A stretch of DNA of 64,000 nucleotides from an uncultured bacterium (GTDB lineage: Bacteria > Bacillota_I > Bacilli_A > RF39 > UBA660): NCBI GenBank assembly GCA_949296605.1, contig CASFPB010000026.1, forward strand, positions 14,859-78,858, in the 5' to 3' direction. Below the pieces are notes generated by a model, which made no database searches, had not been told where the DNA came from, and saw nothing but the letters and a program-made list of their open reading frames with translations. Of the stretch, positions 4,624 to 62,485 are shown piece after piece; position 1 is the stretch's first letter; every line of letters begins with the position of its first letter. The translations under genes and the position numbers were made by a program.

Positions 4624-5502
4624 ATGTATGATATTATAATTATAGGTATGGGTATTAGTGGAATTACTGCTGCTATTTACGCTAAAAGAAGTAATAAAAA
4701 GGTTTTAATCATTGATAAAGGTATGCCTGGAGGATTATTAAATAGCATAGATAAGATTAGTAATTATCCAGGACTTATTGATATTACTGGGCCAGATTTT
4801 GCTCAAAAATTATTAGAACAGGTAGAATCATTTGATATACCATATGTCTTAGAAGAAGTTGTAAATTTAGATTTAGATATGGAAGAAAAGATTATTAAAA
4901 CTACAAATAATGAATATAAATCTAAAAAAGTTATATTAGCTATGGGTAGAAAACCAAAATATTTAGGTTTAGATAATGAAAAAGATTTATTAGGTCATGG
5001 CTTATCAACTTGTGCTATGTGTGATGCCTTTTTTTATAAAGATAAAGATATAGCTGTTGTTGGAACTGGTAACAGTGCTTTACAAGAAACAATGTATTTA
5101 TCCAATATTGCTAATAAAATTTATTTAATAAATCGTCGAGATGGATTTCGGGGAGAAGAAATGCTTGTTGAAGAAGTTAAAAATAATCCTAAAGTTGAAA
5201 TAATTTATAATGCCAATATAAAAAATATGAATGAGGTTGATGGCAAATTAAAATCTATTACTTTAGATAATGGTAAATCTATCGATGTTTCTGGTGTATT
5301 TATTTATATTGGTTATAGACCAGCAACTGAAATCGTAGATAAGAAAATATTAGATGAAAATGGTTACGTTATAGTAAATGAAAATTTAGAAACTCCGATT
5401 AAAAATGTATATGCAATTGGGGATGTAATTAAAAAGGATGTTTATCAATTAGTAACTGCTACATCAGATGGTGCTAGAGTTATTTATAATATGAAAAGTT
5501 AG
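4624..5502 (+). CDS. trxB: Thioredoxin-disulfide reductase
   Basis: N-terminal FAD-binding GxGxxG (IIIGMGISG), redox-active CAMCD matching the CAVCD/CATCD motif, NAD(P)H-binding GTGNSALQE. Strong RBS AAAGGAG. Confidence 0.85.
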   Translation: MYDIIIIGMGISGITAAIYAKRSNKKVLIIDKGMPGGLLNSIDKISNYPGLIDITGPDFAQKLLEQVESFDIPYVLEEVVNLDLDMEEKIIKTTNNEYKSKKVILAMGRKPKYLGLDNEKDLLGHGLSTCAMCDAFFYKDKDIAVVGTGNSALQETMYLSNIANKIYLINRRDGFRGEEMLVEEVKNNPKVEIIYNANIKNMNEVDGKLKSITLDNGKSIDVSGVFIYIGYRPATEIVDKKILDENGYVIVNENLETPIKNVYAIGDVIKKDVYQLVTATSDGARVIYNMKS

Positions 5503-42165: not shown

Positions 42166-42190
42166 ATAAAAAACTAGACATATGTCTAGT
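42166..42190 (-). terminator. Terminator of the tRNA-Met transcript
   Basis: Perfect palindrome ctagacatatgtctag followed, on the minus strand, by a T run. Confidence 0.65.
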
Positions 42191-42201
42191 AAATTTTAAT
42201 T

Positions 42202-42278
42202 TGGTAGCGACGGTGTGATTCGAACACACGACCTGCCGGGTATGAACCGGATGCTCTAGCCAACTGAGCTACATCGCC
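42202..42278 (-). tRNA. tRNA-Met (anticodon CAT, elongator-type loop TTCATAC), encoded CCA
   Basis: Reverse complement GGCGATGTAGCTCAGTTGGCTAGAGCATCCGGTTCATACCCGGCAGGTCGTGTGTTCGAATCACACCGTCGCTACCA folds as a cloverleaf with a GTTCGAATC T-loop. Confidence 0.9.
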
Positions 42279-42540
42279 ATGTCAATTTGTATTAATATAT
42301 TAACATAAATTGTTTATTTTGACAAGTAAAATTTTATGTAAGTTATTTGAATTTTATTATTTGTTAAAATATGTAATTTATTTGTATAATATTTACATAG
42401 ATTTACAATATATTTAAAATGTTTTTTTTTGCCAAAAATTAAAGATAAAAATAAAAAAATAAAAAAAATATTAAAAAATGGCAAAAAAAAACATTGCAAT
42501 TATATGACGGTTTGTTATAATTAATTTGAGGTTAAGAGAA

Positions 42541-44502
42541 ATGGAAAATAGCACAGTTTTAGAAAATTTAGTAGTAGTTAAACGTAGTGGTCAACGAGTA
42601 TCATTTAATAGTGTTAAAATAGCTGTTGCTATTAAACAAGCTTTTGATAGTAGTGATGAAAACGAAATAAATAATGAAAAAAAAATAAATAGAGTTTATA
42701 ATCAAGTTTTAAAATTTATAATTGAATCTTATGAAAATAGAAAAACCATTAATGTTGAAGATATACAAGACATTATTGAAAATGTGCTTAAAAAAACCGG
42801 ATATCATGATGTATATAAGAAATTCAATGAATATCGGTTGCGTAGAGCTGCTTCAAGAGAAGCTTTTTCGGTAAAAGAACAACATAAGTTTGTTAAAGCT
42901 ATTGAAAAAATAGGATTGACTGCTAAGAATTCTAAAAATGCTAATCCTGACGATTTGTTGTTAAATTTTGGAAAGACCATTTCTCAGGAATTTGCCAAAG
43001 CTTATCTTTTAGAATCAAAATATGTTCGTGCCCATGAAGAGGGAAGGATTTATATAGATGATTTAAAATCTTATGCATTAAAAACCACTTCTTCATCTCA
43101 TTTAGATTTTAGTAGTATCGAATCAAATGATATTGATGAAATTACTTTAAAAATATTAAATATAGTAAATAGATTTAAAAGTGAACAATATGGCGAACAA
43201 ACTATTTCAAATTTAGATCAAATATATAAAAATGTAATGATTTCTGATTTTAATAATAAATTTTTGGATAATTTAAAGTGTTTTTTTAAAGTATTAGGAA
43301 TATATGAATTCTTTGATTTTAATGATTTAAAAAATGTATTAGTTGAGAATAATACTATTAAAATAAATATTGATGCTTTTGATGCAATTTTACCAAATGA
43401 AAAAATAAAAAATTATTTTTGGGATATATATAGAATAACTAATGATTATATAGAAGCTAAATTGTTAAAAAATATTGAACTTTTGTTAAAAAACTTTAAT
43501 AGTAATTATTTAAAATATATTGATACTTCTTTATCAATTAGTTTAAGTGAAATTGATGATTTTGAATCAATGTATTTTAAAGAAAAATATTTTGAAATTT
43601 TAAATAAAATTAGTTTTAAAAAGATTGCTACTATTTGTAAGGTGAAAAAAAATACTTCATTAGATTATATAGTAGATGAGGTTTACAATAAAAATAATAT
43701 TATTATTCTATATTTAGATAATAATGAATACGATGATTATTTAGAAACGTTTAGTAATCAAATTATAATTAATGAAAATGTTAATAATGATTTACAAACA
43801 TCTCGAGGTAGAATACTTAATTCATCAATTACAATTAACTTGGCTAGGCTAGGATTAAAATATAATAAGGAAAGTATAAATGACTTTTTTGCTGAACTTG
43901 ATGATTTATTAGAATTGTCTAAAAATGAATTAATACAAAGATATGATTTTCAATCTAGTTTATATAAAGAGAATTTTAATGGTATTTTTGAAAATAATAT
44001 ATTGTTTGACTCTAAAAAACTTGATTGTAATCAAAAAGTAAGGAAAGTTCTAAAAAATGGAGTTTTATGTATTAATTTTTCTGGTTTGGTAGAATGTTTA
44101 GATGCTTTATTTGATGTTTCTGAAAAAGCTGTTGTTAAATTGGATTTTGGTTTAAAAATTGTTGAGTTTATGAAAGAAAAAACAAATAGATATAAATCTG
44201 ATTTAAAATTAAATTTTATTTTAGCAGAGGAAAGTTCAAAAATAGTAAATAAAAATTTATTAGCATTAGATAAAGCTATGGTTGGAAATATAGAGATTTT
44301 GAAAAAAGATTTTTATTCTAGTTTAAGTAGTTTGTTTAATGATTTAAGTAATAAAGCTTTATATCAATATATAGTAAAATATCAAAAAATTTGTAGTTTG
44401 AATTTAGTATTAAATGTTGATAGAAATAAAAGTAAAATAAAAGATTATATAAAGGAATTAGAAAAAGAAAAGGTAAAAGTAGTAAAGGTGGTGGTAAAGT
44501 GA
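42541..44502 (+). CDS. NrdD-like protein: ATP-cone plus degenerate class III RNR body, lacking the glycyl-radical domain
   Basis: N-terminal ATP-cone (VVVKRSGQRVSFNSVKIAVAIKQAF...). AHEEGRIYIDDL is collinear with AHRSAAIHLHDL of the downstream NrdD. No RxxGY motif, no Zn-ribbon Cys and no CAGWS. 658 aa; 4-nt overlap with nrdG. Confidence 0.7.
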   Translation: MENSTVLENLVVVKRSGQRVSFNSVKIAVAIKQAFDSSDENEINNEKKINRVYNQVLKFIIESYENRKTINVEDIQDIIENVLKKTGYHDVYKKFNEYRLRRAASREAFSVKEQHKFVKAIEKIGLTAKNSKNANPDDLLLNFGKTISQEFAKAYLLESKYVRAHEEGRIYIDDLKSYALKTTSSSHLDFSSIESNDIDEITLKILNIVNRFKSEQYGEQTISNLDQIYKNVMISDFNNKFLDNLKCFFKVLGIYEFFDFNDLKNVLVENNTIKINIDAFDAILPNEKIKNYFWDIYRITNDYIEAKLLKNIELLLKNFNSNYLKYIDTSLSISLSEIDDFESMYFKEKYFEILNKISFKKIATICKVKKNTSLDYIVDEVYNKNNIIILYLDNNEYDDYLETFSNQIIINENVNNDLQTSRGRILNSSITINLARLGLKYNKESINDFFAELDDLLELSKNELIQRYDFQSSLYKENFNGIFENNILFDSKKLDCNQKVRKVLKNGVLCINFSGLVECLDALFDVSEKAVVKLDFGLKIVEFMKEKTNRYKSDLKLNFILAEESSKIVNKNLLALDKAMVGNIEILKKDFYSSLSSLFNDLSNKALYQYIVKYQKICSLNLVLNVDRNKSKIKDYIKELEKEKVKVVKVVVK

Positions 44503-45206: not shown

Positions 45207-47597
45207 ATGTATAAAGTAAGAAAAAGAGAAGGAAAAATAGTAGGGTTTGATATTTTAAAAATTAAGGAAGCAATTAAAAAAGCGTTTGATTCAGTAGAAA
45301 GAACTTATGATGATAATGTTATTGATTTTTTAGCATTAAAAGTAACTTCTGAATTTGAACCAAAATTAAAGGATAATATAATATCTGTTGAAGATATTCA
45401 AGATTGTGTTGAAGAAGTTTTATCTAAAGCAGGGTATTCTGATGTTGCAAAATCATATATCTTATATCGTAAGTTACATGAAAAAATGCGTAATATGAAA
45501 TCAACGGTTTTGGATTATAAAGATGTTGTAAATAGTTATATTAATGTAACTGATTGGCGTGTTAAAGAAAATTCAACTGTTACATATTCAGTTGGTGGAT
45601 TAATTTTAAGTAATAGTGGAGCAATTACTGCAAATTATTGGTTAAGTGAAGTTTATGATGAAGAAATTGCTAATGCTCATAGAAGTGCTGCTATTCATTT
45701 ACATGATTTATCTATGTTAACAGGATATTGTGCTGGATGGAGTTTAAAACAATTAATTCAAGAAGGCTTAGGTGGTGTTCCAGGCAAAATTACTTCTGCA
45801 CCTGCAAAGCATTTATCTACTTTATGTAATCAAATGGTAAATTTTTTAGGTATTATGCAAAATGAATGGGCTGGTGCTCAAGCATTCTCATCATTTGATA
45901 CTTATTTAGCGCCTTTTGTTAAGATTGATAATTTAGATTATCATGAAGTTAAACAATGTATTCAATCTTTTATTTATGGAGTTAACACTCCAAGTAGGTG
46001 GGGAACTCAAGCACCATTTACTAATATTACTTTAGATTGGACAGTTCCAAATGATTTGGCTGAATTAAATGCTATCATTGGAGGAAAAGAAGTAGATTTT
46101 AAATATAAAGATTGTCAAAAAGAAATGAATATGATTAATAAAGCATTTATTGAAATAATGATTGAAGGGGATGCTAATGGTAGAGGATTTCAATATCCTA
46201 TTCCAACATATTCTATTACAAGAGATTTTGATTGGAGTGAAACAGAAAATAATAAATTATTATTTGAAATGACTGCAAAATATGGAACTCCTTATTTTTC
46301 AAACTATATTAACAGTGATATGGAACCTAGTGATGTAAGAAGTATGTGTTGTCGTTTGCGTCTTGATTTAAGGGAACTTCGTAAAAAATCTGGTGGTTTC
46401 TTTGGTAGTGGTGAATCTACTGGATCTATAGGTGTTGTAACTATTAATTTACCAAGAATTGCTTATTTAGCTAAAGATGAACAAGACTTTTATGAAAGAC
46501 TAGAAAAATTAATGGATATAGCTGCCCGTTCATTAAAAATAAAAAGAAACGTTATAACTAAATTGCTTAATGAAGGTTTATATCCTTATACTAAACGTTA
46601 TTTAGGTTCATTTAATAATCATTTTTCTACTATTGGTTTAATAGGTATGAATGAAGTAGGATTAAATGCAAAATGGTTACGTGCTGATTTAACTCATGAA
46701 AAAACACAAAAATTTGCTAAAGATGTATTAAACTTTATGAGAGAAAAACTTAGTGATTATCAAGAAGAATATGGGGATTTGTATAATCTAGAAGCAACAC
46801 CAGCAGAATCTACTACTTATCGTTTTGCTAAACATGATAAAGCACAATATCCTGATATTATAACTGCTAGTGAACCTGATCATACACCATATTACACAAA
46901 TAGTTCTCATTTACCAGTTGATTTTACTGATGATATTTTTGCAGCATTAGATATTCAAGATGAATTGCAAACATTATATACATCAGGAACTGTATTTCAT
47001 GCATTTTTAGGTGAAAGATTAACTGATTGGAAGGCAGCTGCTAATTTAGTTAGAAAAATTGCTGAAAATTATAAATTACCATATTATACTATGTCTCCGA
47101 CTTATTCAGTTTGCCAAACTCATGGATATATAAATGGTGAAGTATATAAATGTCCAATTTGTGATAAAGAAACAGAAGTTTATAGTAGAATAACAGGTTA
47201 CTATCGTCCAGTTAAAAATTGGAATGATGGTAAGGCTGAAGAATATAAGAATCGTAAAGTATATGATTTAAGTAAATCTCATTTGAAACATGAAAAATGT
47301 GAAAGCGATGATTGTAAATGTGATGATTGCAAATGTGATAATTGTGAATGTAATGATAATTTAAAAGATGGTTTATATTTATTTACAAGAAAGAATTGCC
47401 CTAATTGTAAAAGTGCTAAAAGTATTTTAGATAAAGCTAATTTAAAATATGAAATAATTGATGCAGAAGAAAATGCTGATTTAAGTAAAAAATTAGGTAT
47501 TAAGCAAGCTCCAACATTATTAGCAATAAATGGTGAAAATATAGATAAATATTCTAATGTTTCTAATATAAAAAAATATATAGGTAGTAACAAATAA
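45207..47597 (+). CDS. nrdD: Anaerobic ribonucleoside-triphosphate reductase NrdD with C-terminal Cys-rich linker and NrdH/glutaredoxin-like domain
   Basis: ATP-cone. AAIHLHDLSMLTGYCAGWSL. Zn-ribbon CQTHG...CPICD. Glycyl-radical motif RITGYYRP. Then CESDDCKCDDCKCDNCEC and a redoxin fold LYLFTRKNCPNCKSAK...QAPTLL. Confidence 0.85.
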   Translation: MYKVRKREGKIVGFDILKIKEAIKKAFDSVERTYDDNVIDFLALKVTSEFEPKLKDNIISVEDIQDCVEEVLSKAGYSDVAKSYILYRKLHEKMRNMKSTVLDYKDVVNSYINVTDWRVKENSTVTYSVGGLILSNSGAITANYWLSEVYDEEIANAHRSAAIHLHDLSMLTGYCAGWSLKQLIQEGLGGVPGKITSAPAKHLSTLCNQMVNFLGIMQNEWAGAQAFSSFDTYLAPFVKIDNLDYHEVKQCIQSFIYGVNTPSRWGTQAPFTNITLDWTVPNDLAELNAIIGGKEVDFKYKDCQKEMNMINKAFIEIMIEGDANGRGFQYPIPTYSITRDFDWSETENNKLLFEMTAKYGTPYFSNYINSDMEPSDVRSMCCRLRLDLRELRKKSGGFFGSGESTGSIGVVTINLPRIAYLAKDEQDFYERLEKLMDIAARSLKIKRNVITKLLNEGLYPYTKRYLGSFNNHFSTIGLIGMNEVGLNAKWLRADLTHEKTQKFAKDVLNFMREKLSDYQEEYGDLYNLEATPAESTTYRFAKHDKAQYPDIITASEPDHTPYYTNSSHLPVDFTDDIFAALDIQDELQTLYTSGTVFHAFLGERLTDWKAAANLVRKIAENYKLPYYTMSPTYSVCQTHGYINGEVYKCPICDKETEVYSRITGYYRPVKNWNDGKAEEYKNRKVYDLSKSHLKHEKCESDDCKCDDCKCDNCECNDNLKDGLYLFTRKNCPNCKSAKSILDKANLKYEIIDAEENADLSKKLGIKQAPTLLAINGENIDKYSNVSNIKKYIGSNK

Positions 47598-48499
47598 TGT
47601 ATGATATTGTTATTGTTGGAGCTGGTCCTGCTGGATTAACAGCTGCAATATATGCTTTAAGAGAAGAAAAAAAAGTTGTTATATTAGAAAAGGAAACTAT
47701 AGGAGGTAAAATTACCTCCTCTTCTAAAGTTGAAAATTATCCAGGATTTAAATCTATAAGCGGTATGGATTTTGCTAATAATTTATATGAACAAGTAATT
47801 GATTTGGGGGGAGAAATAAATATTGAAGAAGTTTTATCGATAGAAAATGGAAAAGTAAAAAAAGTTATTACTGATGAAAATACTTATGAAACTAAAAGTA
47901 TTATTATAGCAAGTGGGTCTAAATATAAAACTTTAAACTTAGATAATGAAGAAGAATTAATAGGTAATGGAATATCTTTTTGCACAGTTTGTGATGGATC
48001 TTTTTATAAAAATAAAGATGTTTGTGTTGTTGGCGGAGCTAATAGTGCTTTAAATAGTGTTTTATATTTATCAAAATTATGTAATAAAGTATATTTAGTT
48101 GTTAGAGGTCCTAAATTAAAAGGCGATAAAAAAGTAATTGATAATGTTTTATCATTAAGTAATGTAGAGGTTTTATATAATACTACAGTTAATAAATATA
48201 TTTTAGATAATGATGAATTAGTAGGTGTAGAAGTAAAAAGTAATGAAAGTGAAAAAAGATTAGATGTAGAAGGTGTGTTTTTAGCAATTGGTCAAAGCCC
48301 AGAAATTAACTATTTAAACAATTTGGTAAAAGTTGATGAAAATAATTATGTTTTAGCATCAGAAGATTGCATAACAAATATAGATGGTATATTTGTAGCA
48401 GGAGATGTAAGAAAAAAAGAAGTTAGACAACTTACAACTGCTGTAAGTGATGGAACCAATGCTGCGATAAATGCCATAAATTATTTGAAAGAGGTTTGA
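47597..48499 (+). CDS. Thioredoxin-reductase-like flavoprotein (second TrxB paralog), start overlapping the nrdD stop
   Basis: VIVGAGPAGLTAAIY FAD motif, CTVCDGSFY redox-active disulfide, GGANSALNS NADPH motif; 300 aa. Confidence 0.8.
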   Translation: MYDIVIVGAGPAGLTAAIYALREEKKVVILEKETIGGKITSSSKVENYPGFKSISGMDFANNLYEQVIDLGGEINIEEVLSIENGKVKKVITDENTYETKSIIIASGSKYKTLNLDNEEELIGNGISFCTVCDGSFYKNKDVCVVGGANSALNSVLYLSKLCNKVYLVVRGPKLKGDKKVIDNVLSLSNVEVLYNTTVNKYILDNDELVGVEVKSNESEKRLDVEGVFLAIGQSPEINYLNNLVKVDENNYVLASEDCITNIDGIFVAGDVRKKEVRQLTTAVSDGTNAAINAINYLKEV

Positions 48500-48542
48500 T
48501 TCTTCTTTCTTTTTTGTTATAATAGGCAAAAGCGAGGAAAAT

Positions 48543-49273: not shown

Positions 49274-49960
49274 ATGAAAAATAAAATTAATATAATTATT
49301 ATTTGTTTTTGTGTTTTGTTAGTTGGGGGGTTATGTTTATTTTTAATAATAAATCATAAAGAAGAAAAGATAAGTGATGCTTTAAAATTTAAAAATGAAT
49401 TTGAAAGCTATAATGGATTAAAATATAGTGATATTGATAAAGAAATAATTGATGTTGTAATTAATGAAGATAATCCAATGATTTATAAAACAGGTAAAGA
49501 AATATTAGATGTTTTAGAAAATGAAAATGCTTTTGTTTTTTTTGGTTACTCAACATGTGCTTTTACTAGAAATGCTATAGAACCTTTATTAGAGGCTGCT
49601 AAAGAAGAAAATGTTAGTAAGATATATTACGTTGATATTAAAGATATGAGAGATGAATATAAATATGCCGGGACTTTAATACCCGAAAAGATAAAGGATG
49701 GAACTAATGCTTATTATGATATAATAGATTTTTTAAAGAAAGAATTAGAAGAATATTATGTTCCTGATTCAAATGGTAATTTATATGATACTGGTGTAAA
49801 GAGACTTAATTCTCCAACTTTTATTTCAGTTAGTGATGGAAAACTAGTAAAAATTTATGATGATATTATTGGCAATGAAGACGATTATTATAAAAAATTA
49901 GATAGTGAAGCTCAAGAAAAGTTAAAAAATAATTATATTGAAGTAATTAAATCTATATAA
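49274..49960 (+). CDS. Membrane-anchored hypothetical protein (possible degenerate thioredoxin-like fold)
   Basis: N-terminal TM. GYSTCAFT where a CxxC would sit; 228 aa. Confidence 0.45.
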   Translation: MKNKINIIIICFCVLLVGGLCLFLIINHKEEKISDALKFKNEFESYNGLKYSDIDKEIIDVVINEDNPMIYKTGKEILDVLENENAFVFFGYSTCAFTRNAIEPLLEAAKEENVSKIYYVDIKDMRDEYKYAGTLIPEKIKDGTNAYYDIIDFLKKELEEYYVPDSNGNLYDTGVKRLNSPTFISVSDGKLVKIYDDIIGNEDDYYKKLDSEAQEKLKNNYIEVIKSI

Positions 49961-59340: not shown

Positions 59341-61929
59341 TTATTCTAATCCAGTATTAGGTTTGTTATTAGGCTTTTCAGTTGAATTGTTATTATTTGT
59401 ATTATCTTCTATAATGTCTCCAACATTGGAATCCATCCCTAAATTTACTTTTATTTCTAAACCATCGCTCATATTGTTTGTAAATATAGTATATGCTGAT
59501 TTTATTACATAAGTAACTGTCCCACTATCAGTTGGATTATTATTAAATGAATAGTTTGTGTTTTCAGTAGAGCCTATATATGTTAAGCTGCCACTACTTT
59601 CTTTTTTAAATATTTGATACCCTAATTTACCAATATAACTATTATTGTAATTTAATCTTTGTTCATAATATCTACTTGCATGTTTATCAAAATATGTATT
59701 GAAATAAGTTTGTAAATTTGATGTATCAATTGCTTTTGGAGTTTTTATTCCTGTCCATGTTAAATTAACTGTTGTTCCATTAAATGTATATTTACCATTT
59801 GTTGGTGCATCTAATTTTGCAAATCTTGTAGATACTTCAGTAGGTTCTGTTCCTTCTTTAAATAATTCAACAGACCTTAAATTATCAGGAGTATATTCAC
59901 TTGCTAATTGAAGGGGAATGGTTTCTTTTTCTATTTCTACTTCGATAACACCACTTGGTTTTGAAAATGTTTTGTTTTTAGAATAAACTTTAGATCCTAC
60001 CGCTTTCATTATTGCTTTTCTTGCTTTATTACCAACACTTACAGTTAGATAATCTTCTTTTGTAGTTTTATCATATCCTAACCATAATGCAATAGAATAT
60101 TCTGGAGAATAGGTAACATTCCATGAATCTCTTGTAGCAGATGTTGGAATTCCATTTTGTTCTGCCCAGCTTCTATCAACATTTGATGTTCCTGATTTTG
60201 CTGCAATATCTGTTCCACTTACTGAAACACCACCAACACCGTTTTCTGCTGCTGATACTAACATATCAGTTATCATATATGCTGTTTCTTCACTCATTAC
60301 TTTTTCTTTTTCATATTTATATTCTATTATTTCTCCAGTTTCAATAATTTCTAATTTTGTATATGAGTATGGTTCGATATAATATCCACCTCTACCAAAT
60401 GCTGCATAAGCTGCACTCATTTGAATAGGGCTTATTCCTTCAAAACCACCAATTGAGGCTGATTCATATAAATCTGCTCCGTAGTCTATTCCTAAACTAT
60501 GAACAAAATCAATGATGTAATCTGGATTTTCTTTATATACAGCTTGAAATGCTTTTAATGCGGGAATATTTCTTGACTCAATCAATGCTGTTCTCATTGT
60601 TATTAGTCCCATATATTTGCCATCTGCATTTTTGATTGATGTTCCATTACTATATGATGATTCTTCATCTAAAAACAATGTTCCTGGTGATCCATTTAAA
60701 TATTCTATGTATGGGCCGTAATCAAATAGTATTTTTGCTGTTGAACCAGGTTGTCTTATAACTGTTGCTCTGTTGTTTCCTTTGGCGGTGTAATTTCTTC
60801 CTCCAGATAATGCAACTATCGAACCATCTGTCGTGCTTGTTATTGCCATTCCTTCTTGTAAAGTTTCATTTGGAAATTCATATATTTCTTCATTTTCTAA
60901 TTGGTTTAATACACTTTGAACTTCTGGATCTATTGTTGTTACTATTTTCATTGGAACATAAAATGGATTCATTCCTGTTCTTTCGGTAACCTCATTTCTT
61001 ACATAATCTATTACTGCTTGGTTAGATCCATTATTATTTTCATTTTCAGCTAGTAGTGATTCTACTGGAATACTTAATACAGCTTCTTTTGTTTCTTCAC
61101 TTATATATCCGTGTTGAACCATAAGTTTTAATACTATTTCTTGTCTGTCTCTAACTTTTTCTGGATTTGTATATGGATTTATTGTTGCTGGATTTTGAAA
61201 CATTCCTGCTATAATTGATGCTTCTGCTAGGGTAAGGTCTGATACTGATTTTCCAAAATAGTATTGGCTTGCTTGTTCAACTCCATATATTCCAGAAGTA
61301 TTATTACTTCCATTATTTCCTAACCATTGGCTATTTACATAAAATTCAATAATTTCTTCTTTTGTATAATTACTTTCTATTTTAAATATAGCCATATATA
61401 TATCTGTAAATTTACGTATTATTCCTTCTAATCCTTCATCTTCATTATTAGTATATACTTGTTTAACAAGTTGCATTGTTAATGTTGATGCACCACCAGC
61501 ACTGCTATTTCCCAATAATTGTCCAAAAGATGCTTTTAAAAATCTAGCAACATCCATTCCTTTATGTTGAAAAAATCTTGAATCTTCAGTAGCTATTAAA
61601 GCATCAATTAAAACTTGTGGTAATTCATCATATGATACTAAAACTCTATCTTCTGCTCCAAGTCTTGCTAATTCAGTTACACCATCTTTATAATATAATA
61701 CCGTTGATTCTTTAGAATATAGTTTTTCTTTATCAAAATCAGGAGAAGTAATGATTATATATAATGCAAATATTAACATTATTGATATTACTGCAATGCC
61801 ACCAATAAGGATTATTGATAATATTATTGATTTTATATCAAATTTCTTATTTGTTTTTTTTGCTGTTTGATTTTTCTTTGCTTTTCCATTTTTTTTAATT
61901 TTTATCTTTCCGAGTCTTATTTTTTTCAT
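59341..61929 (-). CDS. ponA: Bifunctional class A penicillin-binding protein 1A (transglycosylase/transpeptidase) with Asn/Thr-rich C-terminal tail
   Basis: N-terminal TM. GT51 motifs (ATEDSRFFQHKG). Transpeptidase SxxK / KSGT. Start ATG at 61929 after a GGAGG RBS. Confidence 0.9.
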   Translation of the reverse strand: MKKIRLGKIKIKKNGKAKKNQTAKKTNKKFDIKSIILSIILIGGIAVISIMLIFALYIIITSPDFDKEKLYSKESTVLYYKDGVTELARLGAEDRVLVSYDELPQVLIDALIATEDSRFFQHKGMDVARFLKASFGQLLGNSSAGGASTLTMQLVKQVYTNNEDEGLEGIIRKFTDIYMAIFKIESNYTKEEIIEFYVNSQWLGNNGSNNTSGIYGVEQASQYYFGKSVSDLTLAEASIIAGMFQNPATINPYTNPEKVRDRQEIVLKLMVQHGYISEETKEAVLSIPVESLLAENENNNGSNQAVIDYVRNEVTERTGMNPFYVPMKIVTTIDPEVQSVLNQLENEEIYEFPNETLQEGMAITSTTDGSIVALSGGRNYTAKGNNRATVIRQPGSTAKILFDYGPYIEYLNGSPGTLFLDEESSYSNGTSIKNADGKYMGLITMRTALIESRNIPALKAFQAVYKENPDYIIDFVHSLGIDYGADLYESASIGGFEGISPIQMSAAYAAFGRGGYYIEPYSYTKLEIIETGEIIEYKYEKEKVMSEETAYMITDMLVSAAENGVGGVSVSGTDIAAKSGTSNVDRSWAEQNGIPTSATRDSWNVTYSPEYSIALWLGYDKTTKEDYLTVSVGNKARKAIMKAVGSKVYSKNKTFSKPSGVIEVEIEKETIPLQLASEYTPDNLRSVELFKEGTEPTEVSTRFAKLDAPTNGKYTFNGTTVNLTWTGIKTPKAIDTSNLQTYFNTYFDKHASRYYEQRLNYNNSYIGKLGYQIFKKESSGSLTYIGSTENTNYSFNNNPTDSGTVTYVIKSAYTIFTNNMSDGLEIKVNLGMDSNVGDIIEDNTNNNNSTEKPNNKPNTGLE

Positions 61930-61933
61930 TTTA

Positions 61934-62485
61934 TCAACCTCCAATTAATTGATCAACTATTTTTATATAATCTAATCCTTTTAAGCTTAGTTTTATTTCA
62001 TATGCATTTTTTAATAGATATTCATATGGAATACTTTTTCTAGTTTCTTTTTCAATAAAATTCAAAAAATCTTTGCCATTTAATAAAAAATATTTTGAAT
62101 TCATCATTATTATTAAAAAAACTATGCCACCATGTTTATTAATATTTCTTATGTGATTTATTTGATGAGGATGAACATTATTTAAAGGAAATGATGTTTT
62201 ATTTTGAGTAACTTTTGCATCAAATTCTATATAAAAACCTTTATATAATCCATTAAAGTCTAATGTAGATGGTGTTTTATAATATCCATCATGTATTCTT
62301 TTTCCACCATTTTCATATATAACTTTTACAACTCCGATTGGTGTTGGCTTTTTGTATATATATGCTATATCATTTTCTATATAATATTCATTTGCTTGTT
62401 CTATTAAATATTCTAAATCCATTCCACGATTGCTATAATCGATTGTTTTAGAATAATTTTTTTTAATGTTATTTGGATATAACAA
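61934..62485 (-). CDS. recU: Holliday junction resolvase RecU
   Basis: YSNRGMDLEYLIEQANEYY...YKKPTPIGVVKV matches the RecU core. Conserved recU-ponA operon. Confidence 0.88.
   Translation of the reverse strand: MLYPNNIKKNYSKTIDYSNRGMDLEYLIEQANEYYIENDIAYIYKKPTPIGVVKVIYENGGKRIHDGYYKTPSTLDFNGLYKGFYIEFDAKVTQNKTSFPLNNVHPHQINHIRNINKHGGIVFLIIMMNSKYFLLNGKDFLNFIEKETRKSIPYEYLLKNAYEIKLSLKGLDYIKIVDQLIGG

Follow-up and report, generated by a model that had tools for sequence, protein, structure and literature searches.

Within a 64,000-nt stretch of contig CASFPB010000026.1 (the window, whose positions are used for all coordinates), a promoter-like site and a terminator-like hairpin enclose four closely spaced + strand genes. 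These genes encode an NrdD-like protein, the activase NrdG, the class III ribonucleotide reductase (RNR) NrdD and a thioredoxin reductase (TrxR)-like protein. The window is very AT-rich (GC ~24%), and its nearest relatives with a name are uncultured Bacilli of the gut, for example Candidatus Avacholeplasma. The original prediction for this DNA held that the nrdD open reading frame (ORF) continues into a Cys-rich linker and an NrdH/glutaredoxin-like domain, and that this fusion, its coupled reductase and the upstream dead paralogue form a self-contained reductant-delivery module. Every sequence element that it quoted was found where it had been placed. The features of the unit are as follows.

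42494–42521, + strand: promoter-like site (TTGCAA, 16-nt spacer, TG-extended TATAAT) before the four-gene unit, from a consensus scan
42526–44502, + strand: catalytically dead NrdD-like paralogue (likely true start ATG 42541); Pfam ATP-cone and partial NRDD match of 97 bits
44499–45188, + strand: nrdG, radical-SAM activase (TIGR02495 NrdG2, 223 bits, cutoff 131), with a 4-nt overlap with the paralogue stop
45207–47597, + strand: nrdD, whole ORF as called, 796 aa, stop TAA at 47595–47597
45207–47264, + strand: NrdD proper, ATP-cone and glycyl-radical barrel (NF006126, PF13597; residues mapped onto Thermotoga maritima NrdD, 4COI/4U3E)
47265–47357, + strand: variable linker, about residues 687–717, seven Cys (TRF repeat, strain variants)
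47358–47597, + strand: C-terminal thioredoxin-fold redoxin domain, residues 718–796 (Pfam Glutaredoxin, AlphaFold2 (AF2), Foldseek)
47597–48499, + strand: TrxR-like flavoprotein disulfide reductase, 300 aa (PF07992, 151 bits; TIGR01292, 321.5 bits)
48487–48519, + strand: terminator-like hairpin (48487–48509) and T-run, closing the unit before gmk

The nrdD product contains an ATP-cone (residues 3–92) and an NRDD domain (PF13597, residues 121–686, 640 bits). Its best NCBIfam model was NF006126 (1150.5 bits, cutoff 548), and TIGR02487 also scored above its cutoff (525 bits, cutoff 326). The features expected of a class III RNR are all in place: the RxxGY glycyl-radical motif (R661-I-T-G664-Y-Y, with RITGYY at 47187–47204), a Zn ribbon of C636/H639/C649/C652 (47112–47162), a finger-loop radical Cys, C382, that aligns with T. 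maritima C330 and T4 C290, and an adjacent nrdG. Other key residues are C175 (45729–45731), the M380-C381-C382 stretch (46344–46352) and E529 (46791–46793). When aligned to T. maritima NrdD, Y174-C175 corresponds to Y124-C125, S-M380-C381-C382-R to S328-C329-C330-R331, and N527-L-E529 to N493-I-E495; the residue aligned with E529 in the formate-type NrdD of Prevotella copri is Leu. As quoted in PMC4493059, the NrdD2 subtype is defined by a Glu together with a third active-site Cys, while a Met is optional. The NrdD enzymes of T. maritima and Neisseria bacilliformis cannot do without either Cys of the CC doublet (PMC4493059), and Glu438 of the latter is the proposed base (PMC4390871). The original prediction had asked whether the formate-site residues are replaced by the extra Cys and Glu of a thiol-dependent enzyme, and the alignment to T. 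maritima and P. copri revealed this pattern rather than the formate type. The signature is also a property of the family, as SMCCR is present in 78/83 fused homologues and [YF]NLEATPAE in 82/83. Given the CC doublet and Glu, the predicted reductant is a protein dithiol and not formate, and we infer from these residues that the window NrdD is of the thiol-dependent NrdD2 type.

A domain search of the NrdD C-terminus identified Pfam Glutaredoxin (PF00462) above its cutoff at residues 725–772 (34.3 bits, cutoff 22.9). The AF2 model of residues 718–796, built with 28 homologous tails, had a mean pLDDT of 94.4 and a pTM of 0.84 and adopted a β-α-β-α-β-β-α topology (E5–10, H15–26, E32–35, H40–46, E53–58, E61–65, H68–77). 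Foldseek returned 96 matches in the PDB at E≤1e-3, and every one was a thioredoxin-fold protein, including thioredoxins, fold-switched KaiB, the NrdH structure 4FIW and desulfothioredoxin 2L6C (TMq 0.81). The thioredoxin fold assigned to this segment in the original prediction was thereby confirmed. The CPNC active site corresponds to C731/C734 (47397–47408), and the candidate cis-Pro, P769 (47511–47513), lies in QAPTLL at residues 767–772. In a comparison of 22 divergent tails with unalignable linkers, the Cys pair of the CxxC motif and the cis-Pro were the sole invariant positions past the NrdD core; both are invariant in the alignments A2 and A4, and 82/84 species-level fused proteins have CPNC. 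Since the CxxC motif and cis-Pro are conserved in divergent tails and the model is confident, the domain is more than a chance resemblance.

NrdH proteins are recognised by a C-[VM]-Q-C active site and a WSGFRP motif. As residues 718–796 have CPNC in place of CVQC, lack WSGFRP, and score far below the cutoffs of the NrdH models (TIGR02194, 29–32.5 bits, cutoff 85.75; NF007657, 18 bits, cutoff 131), we rejected the NrdH label that the domain had been given. The glutathione (GSH)-binding elements of glutaredoxins are a TVP before the cis-Pro and a GG-x-dD type motif. In the window domain APT replaces TVP and NVSNIKKY stands at the expected place of the GG motif, and all NCBIfam Grx equivalogs scored far below cutoff. 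GSH dependence seems unlikely from these residues, and we would call the domain a short thioredoxin-like redoxin of glutaredoxin size.

The fusion is encoded in a single frame and is not peculiar to the window. Using the last 159 residues as a query against 1.8 billion cluster representatives, we obtained 536 matches at E≤1e-10, and in most of the best 150 the match includes the glycyl-radical motif as well as the redoxin. When one genome per species was scanned, at least 596 candidates emerged, and the best 80 all cover the whole tail. The hosts of these 80 include Oscillospiraceae, Acutalibacteraceae, Christensenellaceae, Lachnospiraceae, Blautia, Ruminococcus, Erysipelotrichaceae and other Bacilli. 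Overall, in Clostridia and Bacilli, the fusion occurs in over 100 homologue clusters and in no fewer than 80 species-level genomes. The original prediction had warned that a sequencing frameshift, or a stop missed between nrdD and what would then be an nrdH-like gene of its own, could mimic a fusion, and one variant, P0065 (703 aa), is indeed frameshifted at the linker start, just before the tandem repeat that sits there. However, about 40 near-identical variants from independent ENA, NCBI and Logan assemblies are 791–796 aa long, the frame is continuous in all listed homologues of 81–97% identity as well as in the species-level genomes, and the repeat has a 15-nt unit, so that changes in its copy number stay in frame. 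The 120 best database homologues (81–100% identical) are nearly all 776–802 aa long with the extra domain. We therefore rejected an assembly artefact, whose probability we consider negligible. The prediction of a fusion with its own reductase was borne out, but as the arrangement is widespread in gut Firmicutes and was listed as early as 2018, it is less exceptional than had been held: Table S1 of PMC6187632 contains one 'Glutaredoxin:NrdD', from Lachnospiraceae bacterium TWA4 (WP_082039398.1, RNRdb subclass NrdDd), without analysis. Six fusions recovered in the representative search (P0147, P0151, P0187, P0205, P0211 and P0224) are 1041–1608 aa long, presumably owing to inteins or extra domains inserted in the NrdD core.

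The gene for the TrxR-like protein begins within the nrdD stop codon. In the junction TAATG the stop TAA (47595–47597) and the reductase ATG (47597) share one base, with an AGG 13–15 nt 5' of the ATG; this overlap and the 300-aa ORF containing CTVCD were both found as predicted. The same 1-nt overlap occurs at two related loci, L003 and L005, and gaps of 2–4 nt at two others, L002 and L004. Downstream sequence of 1 kb or more was available for 79 species-level fusion loci, and in 64 of them a TrxR-like gene follows on the same strand no more than 400 nt away, usually after a gap of 3–30 nt; the genes that flank the nrdD-reductase unit differ between loci. The flavin adenine dinucleotide (FAD) motif and CxxCD are kept in 64/64 of these reductases. 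In the window they are GAGPAG at residues 8–13 (47618–47635) and C129-TV-C132-D, with CTVC at 47981–47992.

GxGxxA and HRRxxxR are the motifs used to call NADPH-type TrxRs (NTRs) (PMC10880999). Both are absent from the operon reductase, which has GGANSA (48032–48049) as a degenerate NAD(P)H site and VRGPKLK, within VVRGPKLKG (48098–48124), instead. The housekeeping TrxB of the window, which the original prediction had correctly placed beside lgt at 4.6 kb, has GTGNSA and NRRDGFRG, intact versions of GxGxxA and (H)RRxxxR. We discarded the TIGR01292 cutoff (343.45 bits) as a discriminator between the two proteins; it is uninformative because the housekeeping copy (302 bits) falls below it as well as the operon reductase (321.5 bits). 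The nrdD-linked reductases could be sorted by the motif at the HRRxxxR position into at least four classes.

Canonical: HRRxxFR, 12 loci
QNL: QNLDFLTG, ~30 loci
TLF: TLFDKFFG with GDANTA, ~16 loci
VRx, the window lineage: VRGPKLKG, VRSSKLRG, VREETIRG or CRKDKLKC with GGANSA, remaining loci

These classes scored 200–240 bits against NADPH-type TrxR structures, 113–137 bits against FFTRs and 88 bits against TRi. The corresponding values for the window reductase were 207–215 bits against NADPH-type TrxRs, 116–122 bits against clostridial FFTRs and 136 bits against 5J60. As this ranking favours the NADPH-type TrxRs, membership in the FFTR or TRi groups was rejected, and the nrdD-linked reductases seem to be descendants of NTRs in which the pyridine-nucleotide site diverged more than once. 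In the window reductase one Arg and two Lys are left at the NADPH 2'-phosphate site. Since this site is degenerate, NADH, weak use of NADPH or a ferredoxin/flavodoxin-type donor would all be possible for the flavoprotein, and the NADPH assay that the original prediction proposed may fail because GxGxxA and HRRxxxR are not conserved. The assignment to the TrxR-type flavoproteins consequently stands for FAD and CxxC and not for a canonical NADPH-TrxR. The group of Bacilli whose reductases are of the TLF class has nrdG not upstream but downstream, on the opposite strand.

A comparison of the window with locus L005 (GCA_944372545.1) revealed that the reductase moves together with the 3' part of nrdD. 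The two are ~99% identical in DNA from 42.5 to ~45.75 kb, a segment covering the paralogue, nrdG and the first ~180 nrdD codons, which encode the ATP-cone, but only 62–77% identical from ~45.95 kb onward, a stretch that takes in the remaining nrdD codons, the redoxin and the reductase. This places a recombination breakpoint within nrdD at ~45750–45950, and the drop in identity indicates that the barrel, redoxin and reductase were exchanged as one block. The reductase of L005 belongs to the TLF class and is followed by a second nrdG on the other strand. Together with its position downstream of nrdD at most loci, this co-transfer bears out the proposal that the reductase is a dedicated operon partner. 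The flanks of L005 (ScpA and neighbours) are rearranged relative to the window. At another locus, L087, a stand-alone 83-aa redoxin homologue overlaps a TrxR-like gene on a 622-nt metagenomic contig, a pair that is consistent with an origin of the NrdD-redoxin protein by capture of a two-gene redox pair through fusion. A second stand-alone redoxin, beside nrdD at L086, was rejected as a scaffold-gap artefact.

The linker of the window contains the Cys cluster CESDDCKCDDCKCDNCEC (residues 698–715, 47298–47351), with seven Cys in 18 residues. This cluster, which the original prediction had pointed out, is a strain-variable tandem repeat: a 15-nt unit, GATGATTGTAAATGT (DDCKC), is present in 3.4 copies (47307–47357, TRF), and the copy number varies by whole units among near-identical strains, with fewer in P0032 and P0034. 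The linkers of relatives are 13–42 residues long and unalignable, 22/84 of those in close relatives and 45/71 in the broader cluster representatives have no Cys, and the number and spacing of Cys vary, most relatives that have any carrying just two. Since the repeat is variable, the linkers unalignable and some relatives Cys-free, the cluster is not a fixed metal site. The density of Cys, and a vicinal CC/CxC pair that recurs in varied contexts in 46/84 linkers (~0.016 per linker being expected from Cys frequency), might be taken to suggest a metal or Fe-S site, perhaps bridging the NrdD dimer, with a role in stabilising the C-terminal domain or in passing electrons to it. As a general feature such a site was rejected on account of its repeat-derived Cys and their absence from many relatives, and we consider it very unlikely. 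Pure noise was rejected too, as the vicinal pair is far above chance. In the broader set, made up of 50%-identity clusters, CC, CxC or CxxC occurs in 15/71 linkers, and in raw counts that ignore kinship a linker Cys pair accompanies 21/29 reductases of the QNL class, 5/5 of the VRx class and 4/12 of the HRR class, compared to 7/20 fusions with no reductase.

The first gene of the unit, the NrdD-like paralogue upstream of nrdG, had been counted as part of the reductant-delivery module. Its ATP-cone is highly conserved (VVKRSGQRVxFNxxKIAxAIKxAF...), while the alignment of its family contains no conserved Cys, no Zn ribbon and no RxxGY, and a shortened finger loop without CC. The AF2 model of the paralogue (pLDDT 84.8) matched the P. 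copri, Streptococcus thermophilus and T4 NrdD folds best, ahead of T. maritima NrdD, and is thus nearest to formate-type NrdDs such as those of P. copri and T4, and its identity to the adjacent nrdD product is 25% over the N-terminal ~240 residues only. Based on this low identity and the resemblance to P. copri/S. thermophilus/T4-type NrdD, we rejected a recent duplication of the neighbouring gene; the paralogue is from a different NrdD lineage. The family is fast-evolving, with 39–58% identity among relatives of the window lineage, and at L002–L004 and L037 the paralogue is 36–57% identical compared to 81–90% for the catalytic NrdD. Its members are 640–670 aa long, are annotated as 'hypothetical protein' or NrdD and always lie directly upstream of nrdG-nrdD, but they are confined to the narrow Bacilli lineage of the window (L001–L006, L037), whereas the fusion and its reductase are broadly distributed. 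With no conserved Cys, a narrow distribution and a different descent, the paralogue does not belong in the proposed module; a regulatory or scaffolding pseudo-subunit is our guess.

Building on the domain architecture, the fold, the catalytic-residue signature, the conserved synteny and the co-transfer observed at these loci, we propose, with a probability of about 70%, that the operon encodes a thiol-dependent (NrdD2-type) class III RNR with a private electron supply, in which the redoxin is the turnover reductant. NrdG would install the glycyl radical on G664, and each turnover would oxidise the active-site cysteines, C175 with the C381/C382 doublet, with E529 as the base. The resulting disulfide would be re-reduced by the CPNC domain, tethered ~30 residues behind the glycyl-radical domain, and this domain would in turn receive its electrons from the co-transcribed TrxR-like flavoprotein, by way of its CxxC/FAD centre. 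We infer which way and between which partners the electrons flow, and that formate is not used. The idea of a self-contained module thus survives in its fused redoxin, thiol-type NrdD and dedicated reductase, and fails for the paralogue.

Several points weigh against this proposal. A 9-kDa domain would have to reach cysteines in the barrel interior, a difficulty that the characterised NrdD2 enzymes share. The use of Glu as an NrdD2 marker derives in part from what Wei et al. reportedly set out in 2014. At 15/79 fusion loci there is no adjacent reductase, so that the reductase is not obligatory, and the NAD(P)H site of the reductase is non-canonical and varies between lineages (HRR, QNL, TLF, VRx), which leaves the electron source uncertain. 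Thioredoxin moreover has an activation role in the formate-type NrdD of Escherichia coli (Padovani 2001, as cited in PMC4390871), and a redoxin beside NrdD is therefore by itself no proof of a turnover role. In keeping with this precedent, the redoxin and reductase might serve activation or repair, keeping the Cys of the Zn-ribbon/glycyl-radical domain or other thiols reduced for NrdG, while turnover would draw on formate or free thioredoxin. The attachment of the redoxin directly behind the Zn-ribbon/glycyl-radical domain would suit such a role, as would the very short linkers of some homologues, by which the redoxin would be kept close to it. However, the CC doublet and Glu distinguish thiol-dependent from formate-dependent enzymes, and a reductase exchanged in one block with the barrel fits a need at every turnover better than occasional repair. 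Activation and turnover roles are also not mutually exclusive, and a role in activation instead of turnover appears distinctly unlikely to us.

A further elaboration concerns the linker. According to PMC4390871, class III RNRs have no counterpart of the C-terminal shuttle cysteines found in classes I and II. That the linker Cys pair may act as a shuttle, of which the three CxC units in the window would be an amplified version, is an attractive idea suggested by the recurrence of the pair. Its fullest form would be a convergent, complete relay in the style of classes I and II, built into one polypeptide, in which electrons would pass from a non-NADPH TrxR-like flavoprotein, supplied by a ferredoxin or flavodoxin donor, to the tethered CPNC redoxin, then to a mobile linker Cys pair and finally to the buried active-site Cys. 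We regard this relay as speculative and unlikely. If true, a recurrent Cys-pair shuttle in the linker would revise the view of class III RNRs as enzymes without shuttle Cys, and would account for the way in which a glycyl-radical active site can be served by a protein reductant.

The arrangement resembles several known systems without coinciding with any of them. NrdD2 enzymes use thioredoxin, and NrdD3 enzymes use an operon-encoded NrdH (PMC9176816). With the NrdD2 proteins of N. bacilliformis and T. maritima (4U3E/4COI) the window enzyme shares a glycyl-radical NrdD, the extra Cys (S/M-C-C-R), the active-site Glu, and the expectation that a protein dithiol, not formate, is the reductant. Those enzymes use free thioredoxin (the N. 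bacilliformis assay employed a general TrxR and NADPH), whereas in the window the redoxin is covalently attached and a non-canonical TrxR homologue lies in the operon; sequence identity to T. maritima NrdD is also low (151 bits). The NrdD3 system of Methanosarcina barkeri, reportedly described by Wei et al. in 2015 and summarised in Table 1 of PMC9176816, is said to combine NrdD with an operon-encoded NrdH-like redoxin and a ferredoxin:disulfide reductase. It is likewise a class III RNR operon with its own small redoxin and dedicated disulfide reductase, a likeness that points to an electron source adapted to the anaerobic metabolism of the host, but it has no Glu, a separate redoxin and a [4Fe-4S] FTR-type reductase, in contrast to E529, the fused redoxin and the low-Mr TrxR-family flavoprotein of the window. 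A redoxin fused to an RNR component is also found in the Grx::ATP-cone::NrdB protein of Facklamia ignava, in which the fused Grx works as an RNR reductant and which PMC6187632 lists with other Grx-RNR fusions. That protein belongs to class I and has an N-terminal, GSH-dependent Grx with a CPWC site on the radical-generating subunit, whereas the window has a C-terminal CPNC domain on NrdD. The clostridial and cyanobacterial FFTRs (6GNA/6GNC/6GND, 5J60) and Desulfovibrio vulgaris TRi (5NII), low-Mr thioredoxin reductases that do not use NADPH, resemble the operon reductase in the TrxR fold, FAD, CxxC and the absence of GxGxxA/HRRxxxR, and they too are extra TrxB copies in anaerobes that often share an operon with a particular redoxin. 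The nrdD-linked reductases differ from them in having their own motif classes (VRGPKLK, QNLDFLTG, TLFDKFFG), and some keep HRRxxFR. A full-text literature search of incomplete coverage found no analysis of the breadth of the NrdD fusion, the linked reductase or the linker Cys.

The NrdD-redoxin fusion with its reductase is thus an uncharacterised, widespread form of thioredoxin-type class III RNR. Because it is widespread among Clostridia and Bacilli of the gut, a large part of the anaerobes living there probably produce deoxyribonucleoside triphosphates (dNTPs) in this way. The loss of the NADPH signature in most lineages of the linked reductase, in at least three ways, hints that dNTP synthesis is wired to differing electron pools, comparable to the NrdD3 of methanogens. 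Electron supply in vivo, and the access of a protein reductant to a barrel plugged by the glycyl-radical domain, are questions that the N. bacilliformis and T. maritima enzymes raise as well, and a single-chain NrdD-redoxin with a private reductase offers a defined set of partners for biochemistry and structural trapping. Current annotations, "ribonucleoside triphosphate reductase" and "thioredoxin reductase/FAD-dependent oxidoreductase", miss the functional link between both proteins.

Two further genes that the original prediction had placed correctly lie outside the unit.

From 48543: gmk (Pfam Guanylate_kin), after the terminator and with its own promoter-like site
4624–5502: second trxB homologue (housekeeping), directly after lgt (TIGR00544)

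Terminator-like sites are enriched in the region, with four found versus 0.7 expected from shuffles, whereas shuffled versions of this AT-rich DNA yield promoter-like matches at least as often, and the site at 42494–42521 is only suggestive as the operon promoter. No NrdR-box pattern matched upstream of the RNR operon, an Rfam scan for regulatory RNA upstream found a tRNA alone, and no TrxA or ferredoxin genes were identified by motif elsewhere in the window. This tRNA gene (RF00005, 64 bits; 42205–42278, - strand) lies between a divergent helix-turn-helix-type gene and the RNR operon and is adjoined by a perfect 7-bp palindromic hairpin at 42173–42190. Downstream of gmk, a 228-aa ORF (49274–49960) with a hydrophobic N-terminal segment and no Pfam or NCBIfam match contains FFGYSTCAFTRNAIEP, which recalls a degenerate thioredoxin-like CxxC/T site. 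GC skew is uniformly positive except in the 2-kb bin at 60001–62000, where it is negative (-0.19) and GC content is highest (0.30); this bin may be an opposite-strand gene block or an RNA gene.

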